Virus record (IMG/VR): IMGVR_UViG_3300030430_000437
Coordinates: 1-34,904 of that record
DNA: 34,904 nucleotides
Reading direction: 5' to 3' (one strand)
Source: a virus
Taxonomy: Duplodnaviria; Caudoviricetes
The translations under genes were made by a program, and so were the position numbers. Below are positions 16,813 through 26,833 of the stretch, one piece after another. Each line of letters opens with the position of its first letter. Positions within the stretch are counted from its first letter, which is position 1. The notes under the pieces are model-generated. The model was not told the origin of the DNA, ran no database searches, and worked only from the letters and a program-made list of their open reading frames with translations.

Positions 16813-17037
16813 ATGGACAACATCTTTAATTTAATCGGAAACTTTGTAGGTAAACTATCTACATTATTATTAAGCATTTTATCTCTTGGCATTATTGCTG
16901 AGGTATTATTTGGTACACCTGCTTTTGGTTTATCAGTTATAGGTAATGTGATGGCTATTATCTCTTTGTTTGGGTCAAATGGAGTAGTAGGAATTATAAG
17001 TTTAGTGGTGTTATATCACTTATTGAGCAAAAATTAA
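16813..17037 (+). CDS. Small hydrophobic membrane protein
   Basis: 74 aa, almost wholly hydrophobic (2-3 TM); last gene of the lysis cassette. Confidence 0.7.
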   Translation: MDNIFNLIGNFVGKLSTLLLSILSLGIIAEVLFGTPAFGLSVIGNVMAIISLFGSNGVVGIISLVVLYHLLSKN

Positions 17038-17045
17038 TATATTTG
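17038..17045 (+). promoter_or_regulatory. Bacteroidota -7 box preceding a non-coding structured element
   Basis: TATATTTG, identical to the boxes at 17148, 18291, 22005 and 25068, but not followed by an ORF. Confidence 0.5.
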
Positions 17046-17049
17046 TAAG

Positions 17050-17130
17050 TTCTTACTAATCTAGTAAGAATTTGTTTTTGTTTAGTTTTAAAGAGTCAGT
17101 TGTTGAGAAACTCCTGACTCTTTGCTATTT
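17050..17130 (+). ncRNA. Candidate small RNA (hairpin, U-rich anti-leader core, terminator hairpin)
   Basis: TTCTTACTA/TAGTAAGAA stem (17050-17070), TTTGTTTTTGTTTAGTTTT core, AAAGAGTCAG/CTGACTCTTT stem (17090-17123). Confidence 0.45.
17090..17130 (+). terminator. Intrinsic terminator-like hairpin
   Basis: Perfect 10-bp stem 17090-17099 / 17114-17123 ending in TTT and followed by GCTATTT. Confidence 0.6.
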
Positions 17131-17155
17131 ATGATAGTTTGTTTAGTTATATTTG
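17121..17155 (+). promoter_or_regulatory. Bacteroidota promoter for the phosphoesterase gene
   Basis: TTTG at 17121-17124 and TATATTTG at 17148-17155; ATG at 17171. Confidence 0.6.
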
Positions 17156-17170
17156 ATAAAACCAAAGCAT

Positions 17171-18262
17171 ATGACAGAAAAACTAAAAGGTAAAAGACTT
17201 AGGTTGTCAGCAGAGGAAGTAGAATTAATTTATGAGTTTAGAGGTAAAGACCTTGACAACATCAATAGCAACTCAGCTTTAGATTTACATTTATTAGAAA
17301 GAGGTATAGATAAAAAAGACGTAGTGTCTGTCAAACACTGGCAGAACATGAAGGGAGAGCTAAGATTTTCTATCGTTACTAAAGAAGATATAGGTATTGA
17401 TGATAAAAGTATATTTAGTAAAGTAAATGAACTTGTTTCTACACACTCCCCTAAGTATAAAAAAATAAAAAGAAAAAAAGGTAATCACCTTCTTGTTATA
17501 AATCCAGCAGATATTCACATAGGAAAATATGCAGATGCTCTTGAAACTGCTGATCCTTATGATATTGAAACTGCTGTAAATAGAGTAACAGAAGGCGTAG
17601 AAGGCATTTTGCAAAAAGCAGAAGGGTTTGATATAGAAAAGATTTTATTTTGTATAGGAAACGATGTATTGCACATTGATAACGTATATAACACAACTAC
17701 TAAAGGTACAAGGCAAGACGTAGATGGTAAGTGGTGGCAACACTATGAAGTAGCTCTTAGTTTATATGTAAGTTGTGTAGAGATGTTAAGAATGGTAGCA
17801 CCAGTAGATTGTATACATTCTATGAGTAATCACGATTATCAAAGTGGTTATCATCTTGCTAAATCTTTACAATCTTGGTTTAGACAAACAGATGATGTAA
17901 GTGTTGATGCAAATCCTAACCATAGAAAATATTACAAATATGGCACTAATCTTATTGGACTAGAGCATGGTGATGGTGCTAAGATGGATAGACTACCATT
18001 ACTTATGGCACAAGAGAATCCTATAGATTGGTCAGAAACAAAATATCGATATTGGTATTTACATCACTTGCATCACAAAGTAAAACATAAATGGTTAGAT
18101 GCAAAAGATTATATTGGTGTTACTGTAGAATATCTTAGAAGTCCATCAGGATCAGATAGTTGGCATAACAGAAAAGGTTTTGTTGGTGTACCAAAAGCAG
18201 TAGAAGGATTTATACATGAGAGAGAAACAGGGCAGGTTGCAAGGTTGGTTCATTATTTTTAG
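17171..18262 (+). CDS. Calcineurin-like metallophosphoesterase
   Basis: ADIHIG, IGNDVLH, SNHD, EHGD and HHLHH metal-binding motifs. The track's TTG start lies inside the promoter box, so ATG 17171 is preferred. Confidence 0.85.
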   Translation: MTEKLKGKRLRLSAEEVELIYEFRGKDLDNINSNSALDLHLLERGIDKKDVVSVKHWQNMKGELRFSIVTKEDIGIDDKSIFSKVNELVSTHSPKYKKIKRKKGNHLLVINPADIHIGKYADALETADPYDIETAVNRVTEGVEGILQKAEGFDIEKILFCIGNDVLHIDNVYNTTTKGTRQDVDGKWWQHYEVALSLYVSCVEMLRMVAPVDCIHSMSNHDYQSGYHLAKSLQSWFRQTDDVSVDANPNHRKYYKYGTNLIGLEHGDGAKMDRLPLLMAQENPIDWSETKYRYWYLHHLHHKVKHKWLDAKDYIGVTVEYLRSPSGSDSWHNRKGFVGVPKAVEGFIHERETGQVARLVHYF

Positions 18263-18290
18263 TTTTTATAGTGTATATAAAAAAAAGTTA

Positions 18291-18298
18291 TATATTTG
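18291..18298 (+). promoter_or_regulatory. Bacteroidota -7 box for the replication/recombination operon
   Basis: TATATTTG in an intergenic gap, 21 nt before ATG 18320. Confidence 0.65.
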
Positions 18299-18319
18299 CA
18301 CTAATTAATACTAAACAAT

Positions 18320-18793
18320 ATGACAACAACAAATTTATTTACAAACGAAAAACAAACAACAATGAGTAGAAGAAACTACAAACCAGAAGAAAAAGTAGAG
18401 GTCAAAGAAACAAGAGCCGAAACTTTAAACAGATTATATAAAGAAAATAATCTAACAGCAGAGGATGTCTATAAAGACTCTAGAGGATTTGCTATTATTA
18501 CAAGGACAGGAATCGACAAGATTGTTTCTAAGCAAAACATAACAGTAGCTTATGAACCAGTTATAATGGAGAAAGACTGGGTTGTAATAAAAGCAGTGGC
18601 GAGTATGAAAGAGGGTAAGACAAGCATGAGAAACATGATGAGTTTTGGAGAAGCATCTGATAACAACCTTATGGGAGGTGGTAAGAAGTTTCCTGTAGCT
18701 ATGGCTGAGAAAAGAGCAATGTCAAGAGTTGTTCTAAAAATTGCAGGATTTTATGAGCAGGGTGTGTTTGGACAAGATGAGATAGTAGATTAA
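18320..18793 (+). CDS. Conserved phage protein, possible ssDNA-annealing recombinase (Rad52/Sak-like)
   Basis: SFGEAS...VAMAEKRAMSRVVLK...GQDE resembles the annealing-protein C-terminal helix; first gene of the DNA-metabolism operon. Confidence 0.45.
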   Translation: MTTTNLFTNEKQTTMSRRNYKPEEKVEVKETRAETLNRLYKENNLTAEDVYKDSRGFAIITRTGIDKIVSKQNITVAYEPVIMEKDWVVIKAVASMKEGKTSMRNMMSFGEASDNNLMGGGKKFPVAMAEKRAMSRVVLKIAGFYEQGVFGQDEIVD

Positions 18794-19054
18794 ATGAATG
18801 AGGATGACTTTATAGACTCTTTGTTTGATGGTAAACCTGCAAAGGCAACAGAACAACAATTACAAATAATTGAAACTTTGTTACCATACACAACATTAGA
18901 TTTACAAATGCGTTCAGAAGTAATAAATAATTTAGAAAACATGACTGAGATAGAAGCTGAGTCATTGTTGCAGTTTATTGACGAACATAGAGTCTATTTA
19001 GACCCTCAAGATGAATATAAAAAACTTAAAGAAAATGGGGCGTTTGACAGTTAA
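18794..19054 (+). CDS. Hypothetical acidic protein
   Basis: 86-aa ORF abutting the previous stop. Confidence 0.65.
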   Translation: MNEDDFIDSLFDGKPAKATEQQLQIIETLLPYTTLDLQMRSEVINNLENMTEIEAESLLQFIDEHRVYLDPQDEYKKLKENGAFDS

Positions 19055-19256
19055 CATATATAGAACAATGGCAAAAGGTTTTGTTTACATGGTGTGGAAT
19101 GGTGAACATTTTATTGGAGAAATTGATCATCATGGTTTACAAACAATGTTAAGTAAAGATGATTACGACAAGGTAAAAAATAATACTAAAACAAAATTTT
19201 TGTTAGATTTAGATAAATTACAACAATATGTCAAACCACCAAAGTATAAATACTAA
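19011..19256 (+). CDS. Hypothetical protein
   Basis: ORF in operon; start uncertain. Confidence 0.55.
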   Translation: MNIKNLKKMGRLTVNIYRTMAKGFVYMVWNGEHFIGEIDHHGLQTMLSKDDYDKVKNNTKTKFLLDLDKLQQYVKPPKYKY

Positions 19257-19266
19257 ATATAAAACT

Positions 19267-19530
19267 ATGACAAAAAAATATAATTTACATAAAATAAGAG
19301 AAGCACGAAATGAGTTTGAAGCAATGCTTAGAATTAAAGGCATATCTGCAAGAACCTTTGCGAAACTTCTAGGTGTTGCAGAAATAACAAGTGCAAAGTA
19401 TATTAACGACCCTACATTACTAAGATATAGTCACATGGATAGCATTGCAATATATTGCAGAATGTCTGTAAAGGATATTATAGATTTAATAGAATATGAT
19501 CTCGTGAGTGATGCAGAAAGATTTGATTAA
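19267..19530 (+). CDS. XRE/Cro-like HTH protein
   Basis: LRIKGISARTFAKLLGVAEITSAKYINDP HTH; start 19267 preferred over 19228. Confidence 0.7.
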   Translation: MTKKYNLHKIREARNEFEAMLRIKGISARTFAKLLGVAEITSAKYINDPTLLRYSHMDSIAIYCRMSVKDIIDLIEYDLVSDAERFD

Positions 19531-19723
19531 TTATTTTATTTTAGAATGTAAACAAAAACAACAAATGAAAAATCTGTACCAAAGTAACATAAAAAACATG
19601 AATACATATTTTAAACCATCTTTTGTAAAAGAAAAAACAAATAAGTATCTGGGCATAACTGCACCTTTTTACAATACTAAGGCAGATAGATTAGCAAACC
19701 ATAAAAACAATATAGATGAATAA
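19508..19723 (+). CDS. Hypothetical protein
   Basis: Overlapping ORF filling the operon. Confidence 0.5.
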   Translation: MMQKDLINYFILECKQKQQMKNLYQSNIKNMNTYFKPSFVKEKTNKYLGITAPFYNTKADRLANHKNNIDE

Positions 19724-19970
19724 AGAAAAAAACTACATAGCTAGTAGTATAAAAAAAGTTACAACACAATATGGTGATTTGTTTAATGCAAACATAAAAT
19801 TAGATGACCTTAAAAAAATAGAAAAAAAAGGTTGGGTGAGTATAACAATAGCAGAACGTAGAGAACCATCAGAAAAAGGTGCAACACATTATGCATATGA
19901 GAACACATATGAACCTAAAGACCCTGTAGAAAAATTAGTACAAAATAATCAGGATGACTTACCATTCTAA
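19716..19970 (+). CDS. Putative single-stranded DNA-binding protein
   Basis: Short beta-rich body with an SSB-type acidic C-terminus QDDLPF; next to the initiator. Confidence 0.6.
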   Translation: MNKEKNYIASSIKKVTTQYGDLFNANIKLDDLKKIEKKGWVSITIAERREPSEKGATHYAYENTYEPKDPVEKLVQNNQDDLPF

Positions 19971-20592
19971 ACCTTCTTATTATTCTATATTACCTGCTGA
20001 GGTAAGGTATGATACAAACCTTACTGCAAATGCTAAATTATTATATAGTGAGATAACTGCTTTGACAAATGCTACTGGTTACTGTTATGCAACTAATGGT
20101 TACTTTGCTAGTCTATATGGTAAATCAAAGGTTACGATATCTAAGTGGATCAGAGAACTAGCAGAAAACAATTATATACAAATAGAATTTACATACAGAG
20201 AAGGTACTAAAGAAATAGATCACAGGTATATAACAATTCTTAAAGGGGGTATTAAAGAAAAGTTAAATACCCTCTTAAAGAAAACTTTAAAGAATAATAA
20301 TACAAGTAATAATACTACAAGTATAATAAAAGAAAAAATATATAAAAAAGAAAAATTTGTAAAACCTACAATAGAAGAAATACAAGAATATTGTAACGAA
20401 AGAAAAAATAATATTGATGCAGAAAACTTCTTTGCATTTTATGAAGCAAGAGGTTGGATGATTGGTAAAAACAAAATGAAGAACTGGAAGATGTGTATGA
20501 TTACTTGGGAGAAAAATAATAAAACAAATACAAGTATGTCAAAGATTGACATCCAACTTAACGAATATAACAAAGGCAAACAATTATTATGA
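19954..20592 (+). CDS. Replication initiator (N-terminal winged HTH, lambda O/replisome-organiser-like)
   Basis: YYSILPAEVRYD...AKLLYSEI...GYCYATNGYFASLYG...TISKWIREL, low-complexity linker, C-terminal KPTIEEI...FFAFYEARGW..GKNKMKNWK. Confidence 0.85.
   Translation: MTYHSKPSYYSILPAEVRYDTNLTANAKLLYSEITALTNATGYCYATNGYFASLYGKSKVTISKWIRELAENNYIQIEFTYREGTKEIDHRYITILKGGIKEKLNTLLKKTLKNNNTSNNTTSIIKEKIYKKEKFVKPTIEEIQEYCNERKNNIDAENFFAFYEARGWMIGKNKMKNWKMCMITWEKNNKTNTSMSKIDIQLNEYNKGKQLL
20240..20360. other. Putative replication origin inside the initiator gene
   Basis: TTAAAG at 20240, 20252, 20275 and 20287; inverted AAGGGGGTATT/AATACCCTCTT (20243-20276); followed by an AT-rich tract. Confidence 0.5.
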
Positions 20593-20921
20593 AAGAAAAA
20601 CTATATGACATCATTGCAAGAACATCAATAGAACTTGGCTTAAAAACTGATGGTAAGACATTAGCAGTTCTGACAAAGACTTTTGCGTTTGATTTAGAAA
20701 CAGATAAAAGATTCAAAAGATTGTCACTAGAGGATGTTGACACTGCATTTAGATTAGGTGTAAGACTTGACACAAAGGATAGTTTTTTAAATATAAGAAC
20801 TTTTTATAGGTGGTGTTTGACACACAAGCAGAGGTTACAAGACGCTTATTATGAGGTACATACCTTAGGAGCTGATCCAAACAAAGTACCTTATTATAAG
20901 AAAAATTTATTAACTTTATAA
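20589..20921 (+). CDS. Hypothetical protein (position of a helicase loader)
   Basis: Overlaps the initiator stop; function inferred from position only. Confidence 0.55.
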   Translation: MKEKLYDIIARTSIELGLKTDGKTLAVLTKTFAFDLETDKRFKRLSLEDVDTAFRLGVRLDTKDSFLNIRTFYRWCLTHKQRLQDAYYEVHTLGADPNKVPYYKKNLLTL

Positions 20922-20935
20922 AATTAAATTTAAGT

Positions 20936-21127
20936 ATGTTGATGATTTTTTTATTACTTCTTGGTATTGGTTTCTTAACCATAGTAGGTATATGTATGGT
21001 AGAAATACTTATACAAAAGGGTGAGAATGAAAAGTTAGCAGAAAATATAGACAAGATAGAACCAAAGCACAAAACAATTACAGGTGCATTATATAGAGAT
21101 AGAAAAAATGACAAAAAAAATTCCTGA
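20936..21127 (+). CDS. Small single-TM membrane protein
   Basis: Hydrophobic N-terminal ~25 aa followed by a charged tail. Confidence 0.6.
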   Translation: MLMIFLLLLGIGFLTIVGICMVEILIQKGENEKLAENIDKIEPKHKTITGALYRDRKNDKKNS

Positions 21128-21347
21128 TTATTATATAGGTAAATATCATAAGTACGAAGCTAGAAAAGTCATAGAAGATTTTGACTTATCTTATAATTTA
21201 GGCACTGCTACAAGTTACATACTACGTTGCTCTAGGAAGCATAGTAGTCCAGTGGATTGTATAAGAAAAGCAATAGCACACTTAGAATTTGAATTAGATA
21301 AAATAGAATTTACAAATGAGCAAGATTGGAAAAATAAAAACATCTGA
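21108..21347 (+). CDS. DUF3310-like protein
   Basis: PDYY...YEARKVIEDFDLSYNLGTATSYILR..RK...DCIRKAIAHL. Confidence 0.7.
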   Translation: MTKKIPDYYIGKYHKYEARKVIEDFDLSYNLGTATSYILRCSRKHSSPVDCIRKAIAHLEFELDKIEFTNEQDWKNKNI

Positions 21348-21528
21348 AAGAAAAGACCATAGAGGTGGAGGTTATAGCAGAAGGAAGTTTTCTGACAGTG
21401 AAGCTAAACTTATAAGAAAAGAATATGAAGAGGGGGCAGGGGGGTCTGTTACACAAATGGCAAAGAAATATAATGTTTCTCAACCACTTATGTATCAGTT
21501 ACTTAATTATGTAACCTATAATGAATAA
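21316..21528 (+). CDS. Small HTH DNA-binding protein
   Basis: KFSDSEAKLIRKEY...SVTQMAKKYNVSQPLMYQLL. Confidence 0.7.
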   Translation: MSKIGKIKTSERKDHRGGGYSRRKFSDSEAKLIRKEYEEGAGGSVTQMAKKYNVSQPLMYQLLNYVTYNE

Positions 21529-21868
21529 AGAAGCTAGAGTTCAGTCAGCGTTTTGTGACTACTTAAAACTAGCTTATCCTAAAGTAAGATACTGTGCAAG
21601 TCTCGGTGGTATCAGAACATCAATGAAACAAGCAATACTAGCTAAGCGTACTGGTTATGTAAAAGGTTTCCCAGATTTACAAATACTAAAAGTAAATAAA
21701 AAATATGCAGGTTGTTTTTTAGAAATAAAAGCAGATAAAAAATCTTACCCAACTAAAGAACAAAAAGAGTGGGTAGCATTTTTAAATGATGAAGGTTACT
21801 TTGCAAAAGTTGTCAAAGGTTTGGATGAGTGCATTGAAACTGCTGAATGGTACTTGAAACTGCCCTGA
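21521..21868 (+). CDS. VRR-NUC family nuclease (probable resolvase)
   Basis: EARVQ...GYVKGFPDL...FLEIK...PTKEQKEW...L...GY PD-(D/E)xK pattern. Confidence 0.88.
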   Translation: MNKEARVQSAFCDYLKLAYPKVRYCASLGGIRTSMKQAILAKRTGYVKGFPDLQILKVNKKYAGCFLEIKADKKSYPTKEQKEWVAFLNDEGYFAKVVKGLDECIETAEWYLKLP

Positions 21869-21984: not shown

Positions 21985-22012
21985 TTTGTTTAGTATTTAT
22001 TTATTATATTTG
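21985..22012 (+). promoter_or_regulatory. Promoter of early unit 1
   Basis: TTTG at 21985-21988, TATATTTG at 22005-22012, ATG at 22035. Confidence 0.7.
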
Positions 22013-22034: not shown

Positions 22035-22532
22035 ATGAAAACAAAAACAATTTTAGAAGTATATAATGATTATGATTCTAATTTTTCATATCAAGATTAT
22101 AAAGAAAATATAAATAATCTTGCAAGTGAATTAGATATAATTATATTTAACCAAAATGATAAGTTTGACAATATTATTTCTGATTTGCAAAAAACAAAAT
22201 ATTGTACAAATCATAAAGATAGTTATAAGAATAGTATAACTATTGATTGCGTTGGATATTCTCAAGGTGATTGGGATAGATATACGATATATTATAATGA
22301 TATGACAAATGACTTGAAATACCTTTGCAAATTATTAAAAAGGTTATTTACTCATAAAAATGATTATTTAATTAAAGAAATAGAATTGTTAGATTCAGGT
22401 CATTCAAAAGTCATTAACACTCATTCTATAATGATAAATTACATAGAGTTTCCTACTAACAAAGATATTAAAGAAACAATAAACCATTATGGTATAGGTC
22501 ATTATGACGAAATAATATTTAATAATAACTAA
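22035..22532 (+). CDS. Hypothetical early protein
   Basis: 165 aa, GYSQGDW motif, A-rich leader. Confidence 0.75.
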   Translation: MKTKTILEVYNDYDSNFSYQDYKENINNLASELDIIIFNQNDKFDNIISDLQKTKYCTNHKDSYKNSITIDCVGYSQGDWDRYTIYYNDMTNDLKYLCKLLKRLFTHKNDYLIKEIELLDSGHSKVINTHSIMINYIEFPTNKDIKETINHYGIGHYDEIIFNNN

Positions 22533-22544
22533 AACAATAATAAA

Positions 22545-22790
22545 ATGATAAATAATGAACATTTAAAAAAGTGTGAACAAATAATTAATAATTCACACAA
22601 AAAAGCAACTCCTCTTTACACAGCAACTGATATAGAAACTAAGATCAATACATATGTAGATTGGTTTTTTGATGAGTGTGGAGATCCTAAAGATGAGTTA
22701 AGATATTTAATGCAATTAATATTAGATAGTGAAGGTAAAGCGAAGGAGGATTTACTAGACGTTTTATCTTACTATACAATGAGTTATTAA
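22545..22790 (+). CDS. Hypothetical early protein
   Basis: 81 aa, leader AATAACTAAAACAATAATAAA. Confidence 0.7.
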   Translation: MINNEHLKKCEQIINNSHKKATPLYTATDIETKINTYVDWFFDECGDPKDELRYLMQLILDSEGKAKEDLLDVLSYYTMSY

Positions 22791-22791
22791 T

Positions 22792-23019
22792 ATGGATTAC
22801 GATAACTATAAACTATCTCTAGATGATAATGAACCGTATGTTAGTAGGTGTTGTGGTAACGAAGTGTATGAAGTGTATGATTCTAAGTATGAAGAATATA
22901 AAACAATATGCGATGAATGTAATTCATATTGCGACATATTACTTGATTATGAATATCAACAAGTAAGAGCAGAACAGATAGCTGATGAGATGTATGAAGA
23001 AAATAAACTTAATAACTAA
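22792..23019 (+). CDS. Small acidic Zn-ribbon-like protein
   Basis: SRCCG...ICDECNSYC; very acidic and Tyr-rich. Confidence 0.7.
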   Translation: MDYDNYKLSLDDNEPYVSRCCGNEVYEVYDSKYEEYKTICDECNSYCDILLDYEYQQVRAEQIADEMYEENKLNN

Positions 23020-23030
23020 AAACAAAAACA

Positions 23031-23300
23031 ATGTCTTATTTAATATTACCAAAAAAAGTTTTTAATAGTCCACTAATTGAATATGCAAATTTTGAGGATC
23101 AAAGTTTTGTAAATTTAATTAGGTTAAATAAACCTTATGCAAATGGAATATCATATGCAGTATATGAAACTACAAACAATGCATTTTGTTCAAATGGATT
23201 ATTTAAAACATATGAGAAAGCAAAACTAAAATTTGAATTAATGATTAAGAATCATTCTTATCAATCTAAAGTTAGAGTAAGAAATAAAATTAATAATTAA
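23031..23300 (+). CDS. Hypothetical early protein
   Basis: 89 aa with the conserved leader. Confidence 0.7.
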   Translation: MSYLILPKKVFNSPLIEYANFEDQSFVNLIRLNKPYANGISYAVYETTNNAFCSNGLFKTYEKAKLKFELMIKNHSYQSKVRVRNKINN

Positions 23301-23312
23301 AAACAAAAACAA

Positions 23313-23588
23313 ATGAAAAAAAAAGATTTACTACAAGATTGGGAGATCGGTCAACGAATATATTACGAACTATTTAATCGTTCAGAAATAGAGGAAAAGT
23401 ATTCTGATTGGTTTTCTAATGATATAGATGTAATTGAAAAAACATTACACTATCTGGATAAAAGTCAGATGATTTATGAACTTATTCAAGATGAATTAAA
23501 ATACCGAACAGATGATTCAATTGAAGAACTTAAACAAACAATAATGCATATACAGAAATTAATATTTATGCGTGTGTGTAATTACTAA
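23313..23588 (+). CDS. Hypothetical early protein
   Basis: 91 aa with the conserved leader. Confidence 0.7.
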   Translation: MKKKDLLQDWEIGQRIYYELFNRSEIEEKYSDWFSNDIDVIEKTLHYLDKSQMIYELIQDELKYRTDDSIEELKQTIMHIQKLIFMRVCNY

Positions 23589-23614
23589 ATTTTAATAACT
23601 AAAAACAAAAACAA

Positions 23615-23785
23615 ATGATAAAATATATTGTAATAATATTTATGTTTATTGGATCATGTAAAGTAAAAAAAACTAATGATAAAATAAGATGTTGCGACAA
23701 AGATACTGCTCATGCATTGTGGAATTGTGGTAATGACATAGAATATAAGTACAAAGAATTATTAACTAAAAACAAAAACAAATGA
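23615..23785 (+). CDS. 56-aa putative lipoprotein, not in the ORF track
   Basis: MIKYIVIIFMFIGS-CKVKKTNDKIRCCDKDTAHALWNCGNDIEYKYKELLTKNKNK; conserved leader; ATGA overlap with the next gene. Confidence 0.65.
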   Translation: MIKYIVIIFMFIGSCKVKKTNDKIRCCDKDTAHALWNCGNDIEYKYKELLTKNKNK

Positions 23786-24378
23786 AAACAAAAACAAATA
23801 ACAATTTTGATAGTAGACTTAAAGATATAATGGGTACTGCTGATTTTGAAAAAGCAATAAAAGATACTGAATTTGCAGTAGACTTTGGTGGCTTTTATGA
23901 ATCAATTCATACTCAATATATTGATACATATATTGACGATCTAAATATTAATTGGGAATATGTAGATTATAAAAAAACATATGAAAATTATGCTAAGTGT
24001 TTTGTTGATTACCTCAACTTCTCACTTAACATGAAATTAAAATATGTTGAGTTGGATAGTCCAAAATATTATAATTATAGAAACGATAAAATTATTGTAA
24101 GTATCAACGAAATAGATAAATATAATCTAATTCAAAAGTACAGAAACGATGATGATTTTGTTAAGTGGGTTAATGAAGCAAGTGCAAGTAAATCTGGATT
24201 TATCTCCTTCTGTTCAGGTATAGATAACTTGATTAATGAACAGGAATTATTACTAGAATATATATTTACTTATATATTATGGAATGAGGAAGAATATGAG
24301 TTTGTATTACATGATATAAATTCAATAGATTTTCATATGGATGATATTGAAGTAGTAATGCAAAAAGATAAGTTATGA
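23782..24378 (+). CDS. Hypothetical acidic early protein
   Basis: 198 aa, FGGFYESIH and SPKYYNY motifs, conserved leader. Confidence 0.75.
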   Translation: MKTKTNNNFDSRLKDIMGTADFEKAIKDTEFAVDFGGFYESIHTQYIDTYIDDLNINWEYVDYKKTYENYAKCFVDYLNFSLNMKLKYVELDSPKYYNYRNDKIIVSINEIDKYNLIQKYRNDDDFVKWVNEASASKSGFISFCSGIDNLINEQELLLEYIFTYILWNEEEYEFVLHDINSIDFHMDDIEVVMQKDKL

Positions 24379-24467
24379 GTAAAGGAGGAATGCCACTACA
24401 TGATTTTAGTGATTTTACATATACTTTTATGGTTATATTAGCACTTTTTTTTGGAGGGTGTTTTTAA
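24375..24467 (+). CDS. 30-aa hydrophobic mini-protein, not in the ORF track
   Basis: MSKGGMPLHDFSDFTYTFMVILALFFGGCF; ATGA overlap with the upstream stop. Confidence 0.45.
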   Translation: MSKGGMPLHDFSDFTYTFMVILALFFGGCF

Positions 24468-24476
24468 TAAACCATA

Positions 24477-24507
24477 GGGGGTATGGGGGGTACTAAGGGG
24501 GGGTAGG
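24477..24507 (+). other. Intergenic G-tract island (G5-TAT-G6-TACTAA-G7-TAGG)
   Basis: Directly visible; extreme outlier in an AT-rich region. Confidence 0.85.
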
Positions 24508-24547
24508 TATAAATAATAATTATAGTAACTTAAAACAAATAAAAACA

Positions 24548-24829
24548 ATGAAAACAATAAAAATTAGTACAGACGAAGCAAAGGAGTTAATACATGATTA
24601 TAAGAATCAGATATTCACTTGTAAGTTTGTCAAAAAAGATGGATCTCATCGTATAATGAATGCAAGACTCGGAGTAAAGAAGGGAGTTAAGGGAGTTGGA
24701 TTAAATTACGATCCAAACGATTATAATCATATAATAGCTTATGATTTAAAAAATGATGGATTTAGGACGATTAATATAAATACTTTGTTATATTTGCGAA
24801 CCAATAAGAAGAAGTACACAATCGTGTAA
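24548..24829 (+). CDS. SH3/Sm-like beta-barrel protein (WYL_2/DUF2693-like)
   Basis: IFTCKFVKKDGSHRIMNARL...AYDLKNDGFRTININTL matches the FxKKDGxxR...D....WR/YR pattern of this family. Confidence 0.65.
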   Translation: MKTIKISTDEAKELIHDYKNQIFTCKFVKKDGSHRIMNARLGVKKGVKGVGLNYDPNDYNHIIAYDLKNDGFRTININTLLYLRTNKKKYTIV

Positions 24830-24856
24830 CTTAATTATTTTTCATAATAGGTTTTG

Positions 24857-24892
24857 AAAAGTGTAGGAATAATTTTTCTACACTTTTTTTTT
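24857..24892 (+). terminator. Intrinsic terminator of early unit 1
   Basis: AAAAGTGTAGGAA / TTTCTACACTTTT stem running into a long T tract. Confidence 0.85.
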
Positions 24893-24908
24893 ATTATAAT
24901 CGTTTTGC

Positions 24909-24948
24909 GAAACTGCACGAAACTGCTCCGAAACTGCTATGAAACTGC
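24909..24948 (+). repeat. Array 2 of four GAAACTGC motifs
   Basis: Copies start at 24909, 24919, 24930 and 24941. Confidence 0.9.
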
Positions 24949-25044
24949 GTGAGATTTATTGACAGATCATCCTTCGTAACCTTTCTACCCTATTCATTAA
25001 CAAATATTTAACGTCAAATTGTCAGATAAAAAAAGTTTTATTTA

Positions 25045-25075
25045 TTGTATAAAATTGAAATTCTTTTTATATTTG
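25045..25075 (+). promoter_or_regulatory. Promoter of early unit 2
   Basis: TTG (25045-25047)-N20-TATATTTG (25068-25075); ATG at 25106. Confidence 0.75.
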
Positions 25076-25105
25076 TATCAATTAATTAACAAAAACAAAA
25101 ACAAA

Positions 25106-25264
25106 ATGCAAACTAAATTTTTTAAATCATACAAAGACGCTAACAATTTTATAGCTAAAAATATTAATATCTATAATTGTAAGTTAACAAAATTATATAA
25201 TAGAGATATTTATATAAATAATATAGATAATTATAAAGTTGAATTTAAAACAATAAAAAAATGA
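25106..25264 (+). CDS. Hypothetical 52-aa early protein
   Basis: ATG after an AACAAAAACAAAAACAAA leader; the track's TTG start lies upstream of the promoter. Confidence 0.6.
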   Translation: MQTKFFKSYKDANNFIAKNINIYNCKLTKLYNRDIYINNIDNYKVEFKTIKK

Positions 25265-25512
25265 AATTAAAAAAATTCTATTTAAAAAAATATTCTAATG
25301 ATAAATTAGGCAACGAAATAAACCCGAACGCAACTTTCGTAGGTTTGTTAGATATTCTTTATACTAATAATTGCGTTTATAATTATATTTGTATTGATGA
25401 TAGTATTATAAGAGAACGTCTATTTAAAGAACTAGCAAATATATTAAATAAAGACTATCAATATATATATAATTTATGGTTAAATTATCATCGTCAATTA
25501 AAAATTGTTTAA
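25261..25512 (+). CDS. Hypothetical early protein
   Basis: 83 aa, DDSIIRERLFKELA...YIYNLWL; ATGA overlap. Confidence 0.75.
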   Translation: MKLKKFYLKKYSNDKLGNEINPNATFVGLLDILYTNNCVYNYICIDDSIIRERLFKELANILNKDYQYIYNLWLNYHRQLKIV

Positions 25513-25514
25513 TC

Positions 25515-25613
25515 ATGTTTTATATTATATTTTTTACACTAATATTTTATATGTATATTGACGCATACAAGCAAGGAATGACACACGACAATGAAACAAA
25601 TAAAAAAATTTAA
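25515..25613 (+). CDS. 32-aa membrane mini-protein, not in the ORF track
   Basis: MFYIIFFTLIFYMYIDAYKQGMTHDNETNKKI; starts 2 nt after the previous stop. Confidence 0.5.
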   Translation: MFYIIFFTLIFYMYIDAYKQGMTHDNETNKKI

Positions 25614-25646
25614 TTATATTTACTTAACTAAACAAAAAACAAAATT

Positions 25647-26060
25647 ATGAAAACAACTAAACGTATTAAAGATTTATCTCTAGCAATGGCTAAAGAGGAT
25701 ATTGAAAACAGCACTTTTTGGACTGATAAAGATAAAGATCAACTTACAAATTGGAACGCCGAAACACTAACAAAGATAAAAAACGCTTTATTAAATGGTA
25801 GATTTTATGCTAGTGTTCAAAGTGTTTCAAGAAGTGGAATGAGTCGCAAAATAAAACTCGGCTACATTTATAAAAACAGATTGCACATCATAAGAGATAA
25901 ATTTATTTTGTCTTTAGCTGGTTGCAACGCAAAAGGCTCAATTAGTGGTTGTGGGATGGATATGTTATTCCATGCCCAATATACATTATTCCAAAACTTA
26001 CATAATAATTATGAAGAAGCAAACTACTCGAAAAGAATGAAACAATACAATAATTTTTAA
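25647..26060 (+). CDS. Conserved hypothetical phage protein
   Basis: 137 aa with SVSRSGMSRKI and ISGCGMDM motifs; conserved leader. Confidence 0.8.
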   Translation: MKTTKRIKDLSLAMAKEDIENSTFWTDKDKDQLTNWNAETLTKIKNALLNGRFYASVQSVSRSGMSRKIKLGYIYKNRLHIIRDKFILSLAGCNAKGSISGCGMDMLFHAQYTLFQNLHNNYEEANYSKRMKQYNNF

Positions 26061-26084
26061 TAACTAAACTAAACTAAACTAAAC

Positions 26085-26252
26085 ATGAATATTTACAGAA
26101 ACAATCAAGGTTTTATAATCATTGAGGACATATTGGGAGGAGAATATAAAAGCAAGAGTTATTTATATTACACCAAGCAACAAGCAATAAAAAATTTTAA
26201 GGAACACTATAAAAAATATTATCATAAAAACGGACGCAAAAAACTAATTTAA
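26085..26252 (+). CDS. 55-aa basic early protein, not in the ORF track
   Basis: MNIYRNNQGFIIIEDILGGEYKSKSYLYYTKQQAIKNFKEHYKKYYHKNGRKKLI; leader (AACTA)x4. Confidence 0.7.
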   Translation: MNIYRNNQGFIIIEDILGGEYKSKSYLYYTKQQAIKNFKEHYKKYYHKNGRKKLI

Positions 26253-26303: not shown

Positions 26304-26833
26304 GTCTAGTAGTCAACTATTAATTAATATTTTTAACACATTAAACGGTTTAAAAAGTATCTTATTTAGTTTGATATCTAGTTTAGTTTGTTTTATATTA
26401 TTGTGTTTATATGGTGGCTTACTCTTTTTCTTACACTTTACCAGATTTTCACACACATTTTTAAAAAAAAGACTAAAAAAAAACAAAAAGAATATTTTTT
26501 TTTGTGTCATTGTGTCATATTTTTTGATTGTCAAAAACAATTCCGTCAAAATGCAATGCCCTAGCTTATAACCCCACACACATACACACACCAGATCCAA
26601 GTTCAATTTTATAAAGTCTATATTTTGGTATTAAATGTGTTCATTGCGATATGAGCAATACACATTCTATAAGAAGTTGGAAGGTACAATAATTATTTGA
26701 TATTTAAAAGTAATATTGTGAAGTTTAAGTTTCTGTAAGGGAATTGATTGTGTGATTCATTTATTTTTATTTATATTGTAGCTAGAAATAAATTGTATAA
26801 TTATATTAACTTCAATTTTATAAAAAATATTAC

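Follow-up and report, generated by a model that had tools for sequence, protein, structure and literature searches.

Antisense RNAs in Bacteroidota and in phages

To our knowledge, Bacteroidota make no use of Shine-Dalgarno sequences and have no Hfq. Early-gene shut-off in small phages that have neither their own polymerase nor a recognizable repressor is largely unexplained, above all in Bacteroidota. The closest known kind of RNA to the unit described here is, by analogy, that of FopS and GibS of Bacteroides thetaiotaomicron, both of which, according to the available parts of the two reports, base-pair across the start region of their targets and so repress them, using neither a Shine-Dalgarno sequence nor Hfq (PMC11697453, PMC7366714). 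As described there, FopS (Rfam RF04319) is a Bacteroides thetaiotaomicron sRNA of ~65 to 70 nt present in 12 to 15 copies; FopS-10 blocks translation in vitro, with a compensatory-mutation control, and the single-stranded region of FopS also binds the protein RbpB (PMC11697453). The same text mentions one phage copy of FopS (Supplementary Fig. 5a), which may bear on novelty. For phages, the accessible part of a 2025 review of phage sRNAs describes c4 of P1/P7, which blocks one phage mRNA, and the trans-acting sRNAs PreS (lambda) and VpdS (VP882), which favor the lytic cycle; this part contains no occurrence of “Bacteroid” or “Flavobacter” (PMC12197685).

We analyzed a window of 34,904 bases, by which we mean the whole stretch of DNA under study, and which is the complete genome of a marine, Flavobacteria-type phage (CheckV 100%). 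We consider it probable that a unit at positions 17038 to 17130 encodes a trans-acting sRNA that represses translation of some eight small, likely early genes of the phage itself, and that it works like FopS while not being a member of that family. The unit resembles FopS as described in the available text in having a Bacteroidota sigma-70 promoter upstream (17038-17045), a similar size, and an AU-rich single-stranded seed before an intrinsic terminator, the U-tail of which is weak in this lineage. In contrast, FopS is described as host encoded, with one conserved seed aimed at glycan-uptake mRNAs, whereas the unit is phage encoded, occurs about once per genome, has a seed that varies with the phage's own leader, carries a 5′ hairpin before that seed, and lacks the R1 sequence.

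With the Rfam gathering score of 56 bits as the cut-off for FopS membership, the element fell short, giving no FopS match at E values up to 10. The best score in a relative was 26.6 bits (G007; such labels are our own for the relatives), and since the antisense strands of plain gene starts reached 23.6 to 24.7 bits, we rejected FopS homology. The R1/R1′ seed with its 5′ anti-start triplet is likewise absent from the window's core, a partial likeness being seen in G007 only, and the element is not multicopy: there is one promoter-led copy, and a second tract at 24830-24856 differs in sequence. Across the window, Rfam gave no gathering-level match, and only chance-level ones at the element and at the second tract (24830-24890). 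The c4 antisense RNA had no gathering-level Rfam match in the window and was not among the matches at the element with E values up to 10. As summarized in the review, c4 is alike in being phage encoded, in pairing with a phage mRNA close to its ribosome-binding site, and in having a sequence that determines phage-specific immunity; it differs in having a single target operon (ant), in acting through the loops of a processed RNA, and in belonging to temperate Enterobacteria phages (PMC12197685). PreS and VpdS share trans action with the proposed RNA, but are described as Hfq dependent, with mainly host mRNAs and sRNAs as targets, whereas the present core barely matches host-type leaders (PMC12197685). 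The original prediction held that no such system had been described. FopS and GibS are published; what would be new is a phage-borne version aimed at the phage's own standardized leaders, and our literature search, mostly of open-licence papers, found no report of a Bacteroidota phage sRNA against its own leaders.

Genome layout and likely host

The genes of the phage lie almost all on the + strand, in this order:

up to 17037 (+): tail and head genes, then lysis genes, the lysis block ending at 17037
17171-21868 (+): exonuclease and replication block
17171-18262 (+): exonuclease gene
22035-26252 (+): array of small low-GC genes, function not known; the terminase gene comes next

The array has promoter boxes at 22005 and 25068 and likely represents the early genes. 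Relatives of the exonuclease occur in marine metagenomes and, for 2 of 4 loci in one set, on contigs whose titles name Flavobacteriaceae and Flavobacteriales, and the protein has ~51% identity to homologues in Flavobacterium phages. Because of these sources, a flavobacterium is the likely host. Among the 51 and 50 proteins scanned in this genome, neither an integrase nor a clear repressor was recognized, and lysogeny was therefore set aside.

Anatomy of the unit

The unit and its immediate surroundings are composed as follows:

17038-17045 (+): promoter box of the Bacteroidota sigma-70 −7 type (TAHHTTTG), from the sequence and the published consensus
17050-17127 (+): predicted small RNA of ~78 nt; 5′ end placed from the box, 3′ end uncertain
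17050-17070 (+): hairpin 1, 9 bp, starting at the predicted +1 (fold)
17071-17089 (+): U-rich single-stranded core, 19 nt, antisense to the shared leader (fold, complementarity)
17090-17127 (+): hairpin 2, 10 bp, −15.4 kcal/mol, weak U-tail, likely terminator (fold)
17148-17155 (+): second promoter box, serving the exonuclease gene

The first box lies directly 3′ of the stop codon of the open reading frame at 16813-17037, with an A/T run upstream; boxes of the same type also precede the ATGs at 17171, 18320, 22035, and 25106. In F. johnsoniae, the last G of the TAHHTTTG box sits at −5, according to the part of the report available (PMC6847099), and the predicted +1 is therefore position 17050, the first base of hairpin 1. 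The region from 17038 to 17130 folds at −29.2 kcal/mol (z = −6.4), with none of 200 shuffles equally stable, and no alternative fold was predicted. The complementary stretch had been given as 17070-17083; A17070 is the closing base of hairpin 1, and the free core therefore begins only at 17071-72, with an unpaired probability of 0.99 to 1.00 across 17072-17082. Hairpin 2 was found as proposed as far as its stem is concerned; its U-tail is weak in this lineage and strong in other lineages. The arrangement of an intrinsic terminator, a hairpin followed at once by a U-rich tract, is predicted for hairpin 1 with the U-run (−6.9 kcal/mol) and, with the weak tail, for hairpin 2; on a read-through late mRNA hairpin 1 lengthens to 13 bp (17046-17074; −10.7 kcal/mol).

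No minus-strand ATG frame starts inside the unit, in agreement with the earlier statement that the motif is not a reversed gene leader. The first box, hairpin 2, and the absence of an open reading frame together delimit a closed unit of ~78 nt, and because the exonuclease gene has its own box, the upstream unit is self-contained.

Complementarity to the leaders of the small-gene array

As previously noted, the sequence complementary to positions 17070-17083 recurs without mismatch at 23301-23314, 23603-23616, and 23770-23783, each time over 14 nt with the AT of ATG as the last two bases, and all three matches were recovered. A fourth 14-nt copy, missed earlier, lies at 23786-23799 within the first codons of gene 23782. 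Further perfect matches comprise 13 nt before 25106, 12 nt before 23031, and 13 nt at 25626-25638, the last paired by 17075-17087. The core is interrupted by G and A exactly opposite the C and T of the leaders, and the 13-mer leader motif AAACAAAAACAAA occurs five times on the + strand and once on the − strand, this single copy being the element itself.

When all 58 gene starts were ranked by net duplex energy, including the costs of opening, the best eight all fell in the 23- to 26-kb array (in order, genes 25647, 23615, 23782, 23313, 26085, 25106, 23031, and 24548), with moderate net energies of −12.8 to −9.9 kcal/mol. The predicted targets, with net energies in kcal/mol, are listed by position:

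23014-23031 (+): leader of gene 23031; 12-nt perfect match, −10.5
23301-23314 (+): leader and start of gene 23313; 14 nt, −11.9
23597-23616 (+): leader and start of gene 23615; 14 nt, −12.3
23764-23799 (+): leader and start of gene 23782, plus the second 14-nt site; −12.1
24532-24548 (+): leader of gene 24548, which encodes a WYL_2 domain (Pfam PF10902); −9.9
25093-25105 (+): leader of gene 25106; 13 nt, −11.0
25626-25643 (+): leader of gene 25647; 13 nt, −12.8
26076-26091 (+): leader and start of gene 26085; 10 nt, −11.1

An energy of −7 kcal/mol was reached by 9 of 13 starts in the array, 3 of 13 in the replication block, and 1 of 32 elsewhere (P = 4e-5), an enrichment that is partly circular because the bounds of the array were taken from the coordinates of the original prediction. 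The element has an accessible seed complementary to starts at other loci, as trans-encoded sRNAs in general do. The paired stretch includes A-3, A-6, A-12, and A-13 of the target leaders, and adenines at −3, −6, −12, and −13 are positive determinants of initiation in F. johnsoniae, according to the accessible text (PMC6847099).

A suggestion that A-rich host leaders might also be silenced was not borne out: 12-nt matches to the core occurred at 1 of 292 starts in stand-in hosts (400 kb from two Flavobacteriaceae/Flavobacteriales genomes, which may differ from the true host) versus 6 of 13 starts in the phage array, and we rejected shut-off of host genes as a function.

The contribution of chance was assessed by shuffling the 20-nt core alone, preserving either dinucleotide or mononucleotide composition, and comparing it with the 58 starts. 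Matches of 12 nt at 6 of 58 starts gave P = 0.046 (dinucleotide) and 0.014 (mononucleotide), and matches of 14 nt at 3 of 58 starts gave P = 0.029 and 0.009, respectively, whereas 10-nt matches were not significant (P = 0.20 and 0.086). This comparison with shuffles favors the element at 12 to 14 nt and not at 10 nt, and with dinucleotide P values of 0.03 to 0.05, low complexity is a real caveat. Among all 32-nt segments of the + strand, the unit is the one antisense to the most starts (13 at 9 nt; runner-up, 11). In the same comparison across 14 genomes, the unit came first in 4 and within the top 3.5% in 8 more; it failed for G002 and G007. The positional and comparative support is stronger than that from core shuffles.

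Conservation and recurrence in relatives

Related loci were gathered through the exonuclease (80 of 517 confirmed, 80 of 520, and 119 of ~420), and through a hairpin motif (54), and whole records were fetched as well; exact-motif scans returned three near-identical contigs only. Alignments were anchored on the box and the start of the hairpin, leaving the core out of the anchor. In lineage A (8 distinct sequences from 16 loci), none of the 19 core positions varies, whereas the flanks do (upstream, 19 of 30; spacer, 5 of 17; next leader, 7 of 15); hairpin 1 has a single variable position, at which pairing is kept as G-U. In lineage B, the core is identical in 67 of 67 loci.

More distant units were sought with a descriptor that held no core sequence and with a looser one that required a U-rich stretch and a 5-letter motif. 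Units consisting of box, core, and terminator were found in 19 of 49 cluster representatives, many of which are short fragments and three redundant, and a promoter box was present in each relative's unit. Near-complete records (at least 87% complete) carried a unit in 9 of 12 cases, G002 being doubtful; seven of the 12 (the window and six relatives) had been picked for having one, and G009 for a tract after a stop codon. Two of the five records picked without a flagged unit (G011 to G015, G013 partial) had one. The descriptor found no unit in G009, G012, G014, or the partial G013, nor in the cultured Flavobacterium phage snusmum6-1. Three locations were seen, with unrelated hairpins: the unit precedes the exonuclease, directly follows it, or lies 7 to 8 kb on. 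In W (this genome), L238, L151, L185, and G004, the first base of the 5′ hairpin falls at +1 to +3. As the hairpins differ between lineages, a MAFFT-based covariance model retained just 6 base pairs.

Covariation of the core with each phage's own leaders

Each of 17 units was compared with the gene starts of every one of the 17 genomes or fragments; G010, L146, L205, and L153 were left out as lineage duplicates or as too short. Cores fit their own leaders better than those of others (permutation P = 5e-6 by match length and 2.4e-4 by duplex energy), and the window's core ranks its own genome first of 17 by both measures. The expectation that relatives would carry units with a covarying core is upheld, seed and targets changing together as in trans-encoded sRNAs in general, with the qualification that the own rank by match length is 3 or better in 9 of 17 lineages and poor in the other 8 (G002, G007, G008, G015, L238, L151, L120, and L185, of which the four with L labels are fragments of 11 to 19 genes). 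Because the lineages are related, we repeated the test on 8 disjoint pairs from the exonuclease tree, several of which come from weak or open forks rather than well-supported sisters. By match length, 6 pairs were positive, 1 negative, and 1 tied (one-sided sign test, 0.06); by duplex energy, 7 were positive and 1 negative (0.035).

Individual cases illustrate the correspondence. The G004 unit has a perfect 18-nt match to one of its own leaders, and the L151 core carries a CG that is present in its own leader. In L185, an anti-start triplet sits at the hairpin loop. In G006 (C1 26600-26690, +), two seeds are split by a GC-rich hairpin and are predicted to pair contiguously on one leader as a three-way junction; these leaders are common to at least 4 genes. 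A further unit, L354:3450-3545 (+), comes from a phage-like contig in a Flavobacteriales assembly, where it directly follows the exonuclease and has an anti-ATG core and a strong terminator; it was left out of the covariation test.

Proposed action of the RNA and competing explanations

We infer the following for transcription, RNA ends, pairing in the cell, repression, and timing. Judging from the box and hairpin 2, transcription by the host sigma-70 polymerase would run from 17050 to about 17127, and late read-through transcripts may supply more of the same RNA end. Hairpin 1 is predicted to cap the 5′ end while the core stays free. The core would pair with the target leaders from −20 to +1, a span that holds the adenines that drive initiation, and such pairing would, by analogy with FopS, block 30S loading. 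Its purpose would be to silence the early array, or to limit its output, in the course of infection. The promoter-driven, ~80-nt anti-leader RNA against the phage's own array that was originally put forward gains support from conservation, recurrence, and covariation.

The main rival is a plain terminator, or pair of terminators, of the late or lysis operon, hairpin 1 and the U-run being backed by hairpin 2 and the complementarity being a by-product of a U-run facing A-rich leaders. The unit directly follows the last gene of the lysis block, the extended hairpin 1 before the U-run looks workable, and the core shuffles are just modestly significant, and to this extent the caveat about low complexity and a late terminator that accompanied the original prediction stays partly alive. 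A terminator does not, however, require a 19-nt core that is invariant and has G/A interruptions exactly matching the leaders' C/T, nor does it account for the promoter box or the preference for own leaders. In G001, G008, G015, and L135, no hairpin precedes the core, and some relatives carry the unit away from the end of the late operon. In a set of 41 terminators from 12 records, the upstream sequence is U-rich at the 7 that have a free promoter box before them and not at the other 34 (T-A skew, +0.26 versus −0.02; P = 1.4e-4). We regard a terminator pure and simple as improbable; a dual role, in which hairpin 1 and the U-run also end the late transcript, is plausible.

Another reading keeps the sRNA and changes its action, to a U-rich decoy for an RNA-binding protein (of the host, or the phage WYL protein) or to a stabilizer of early mRNA. 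Protein binding by the single-stranded region of FopS would fit a decoy, as would a stand-alone WYL-like domain encoded by the phage, the leader of which is itself a predicted target:

24548-24829 (+): gene for a stand-alone WYL_2 (PF10902) protein (Pfam, predicted structure)

The model of this protein (pLDDT 88) is closest to the WYL domains of PafBC, CapW, and BrxR (Z 6.7 to 7.3; best match Z 7.3, rmsd 3.2, 71 aligned), versus Z 5.0 for Hfq; a phage Hfq was rejected on these scores and because the gene is absent from most unit-bearing lineages. Only the W, G004, and G005/G010 lineages yielded the WYL_2 gene, and a protein decoy needs no lineage-specific complementarity, while start-region pairing represses, rather than stabilizes, in GibS and FopS. 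We think it unlikely that the RNA acts in either of these ways, and a protein decoy is less likely than a terminator.

An inverted relic or DNA copy of the leader repeat, kept by recombination or as a protein site on DNA and having no RNA function, would also covary with the phage's own leaders through concerted evolution. Antisense copies of ordinary gene starts do look FopS-like, and several relatives retain an antisense ATG with a frame of 6 to 43 codons; in G001, G007, G008, G011, G015, L120, and L185, the anti-ATG is backed by such short antisense frames only. Yet 10 of 19 units, the window's among them, lack an antisense ATG, and the relatives' units have no peptide in common, on which grounds we rejected a minus-strand peptide as well. 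A relic, moreover, would hardly be present just once and invariably antisense, flanked by a promoter box and a terminator that both have the sense orientation, with a strictly conserved core in variable flanks, and the split seed of G006 makes sense only once folded. This explanation is less likely, and we hold it to be very improbable. A 5′ attenuator or leader of the exonuclease/replication operon, at which a phage factor would govern read-through, is the least credible, since its agreement with a unit just upstream of the exonuclease in lineages A to E and with a hairpin 2 that looks leaky in this lineage is outweighed by the exonuclease's own box at 17148, by units located after the exonuclease or 7 to 8 kb away elsewhere, and by the lack of a predicted alternative fold.

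A parallel in mycobacteriophages and its implications

A comparable arrangement is known from cluster K mycobacteriophages, in which, according to the available part of the report, 13-bp Start-Associated Sequences (SAS) precede many non-structural genes in a single orientation, and four K1 phages have one reverse copy that is not at a gene start (PMC3203893). In that text, the authors left the partner of the SAS open and proposed no RNA for the reverse copy (PMC3203893). As described there, the K1 SAS shares with the present phage a standard motif at many starts and a lone reverse copy; it is unlike it in being GC-rich and including a Shine-Dalgarno sequence, and the phages and hosts are unrelated.

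In the right half of the Anaya genome, we counted 15 sense SAS copies and 1 reverse copy. The reverse copy (L383:29870; JF704106 59870) lies between genes 96 and 97 in a conserved non-coding stretch; on the transcribed strand, it is predicted to form the unpaired 10-nt loop of a long hairpin. Matches to this stretch occur in 147 records. Of 9 phages inspected, 5 retain the loop, Amohnition has an altered version, and Yuna, Hurricane, and Pharb lack it; the parts of Pixie and TM4 examined, half a genome each, contained none, and in Angelica the stretch is annotated within a hypothetical gene. The loop is also an anti-Shine-Dalgarno sequence, and other readings are therefore open. We offer the Anaya hairpin as a lead only, a candidate anti-leader RNA in a cultured phage.

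A more general idea, which we put forward tentatively and regard as doubtful, is that a phage early block bearing one leader “address” is governed by a co-evolving mirror RNA, a chaperone-free master switch that would also silence incoming kin and that recurs in unrelated phages, the K1 SAS copy included. If an RNA is indeed matched to a standardized leader, it would represent a new level of phage timing control and would explain why leaders are near-identical across variable early-gene arrays. It would also offer a compact design for gene silencing in Flavobacteria and Bacteroides. Given its small size, the unit could be studied in Flavobacterium johnsoniae without the uncultured phage, and the parallel in cultured mycobacteriophages makes the question left by the SAS paper in 2011 directly testable.

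Other tracts in the window

A second anti-start tract with an anti-ATG, at 24830-24890 (+), directly follows the stop codon of gene 24548 and precedes a strong terminator. Its TTTTCATAA center is kept in 6 of 6 lineage-A sequences, and the tract is missing after the same gene in lineage B. A promoter-like box is present at 24789, within the last codons of gene 24548, and the best predicted targets of the tract are scattered and weaker than those of the main core. Similar tracts lie 3′ of stop codons in G007 and G009. At 26360-26410, a T-rich stretch that mirrors the leaders lies in a long non-coding gap after the array terminator; no promoter box or terminator was recognized there, and the gap may contain the genome end or origin. 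Finally, four short direct repeats of the GAAACTGC type occupy 24908-24950 (+), after the terminator at 24853-24890. L012 and L087 have comparable repeats 3′ of the same gene, and the repeats are possible protein-binding iterons.
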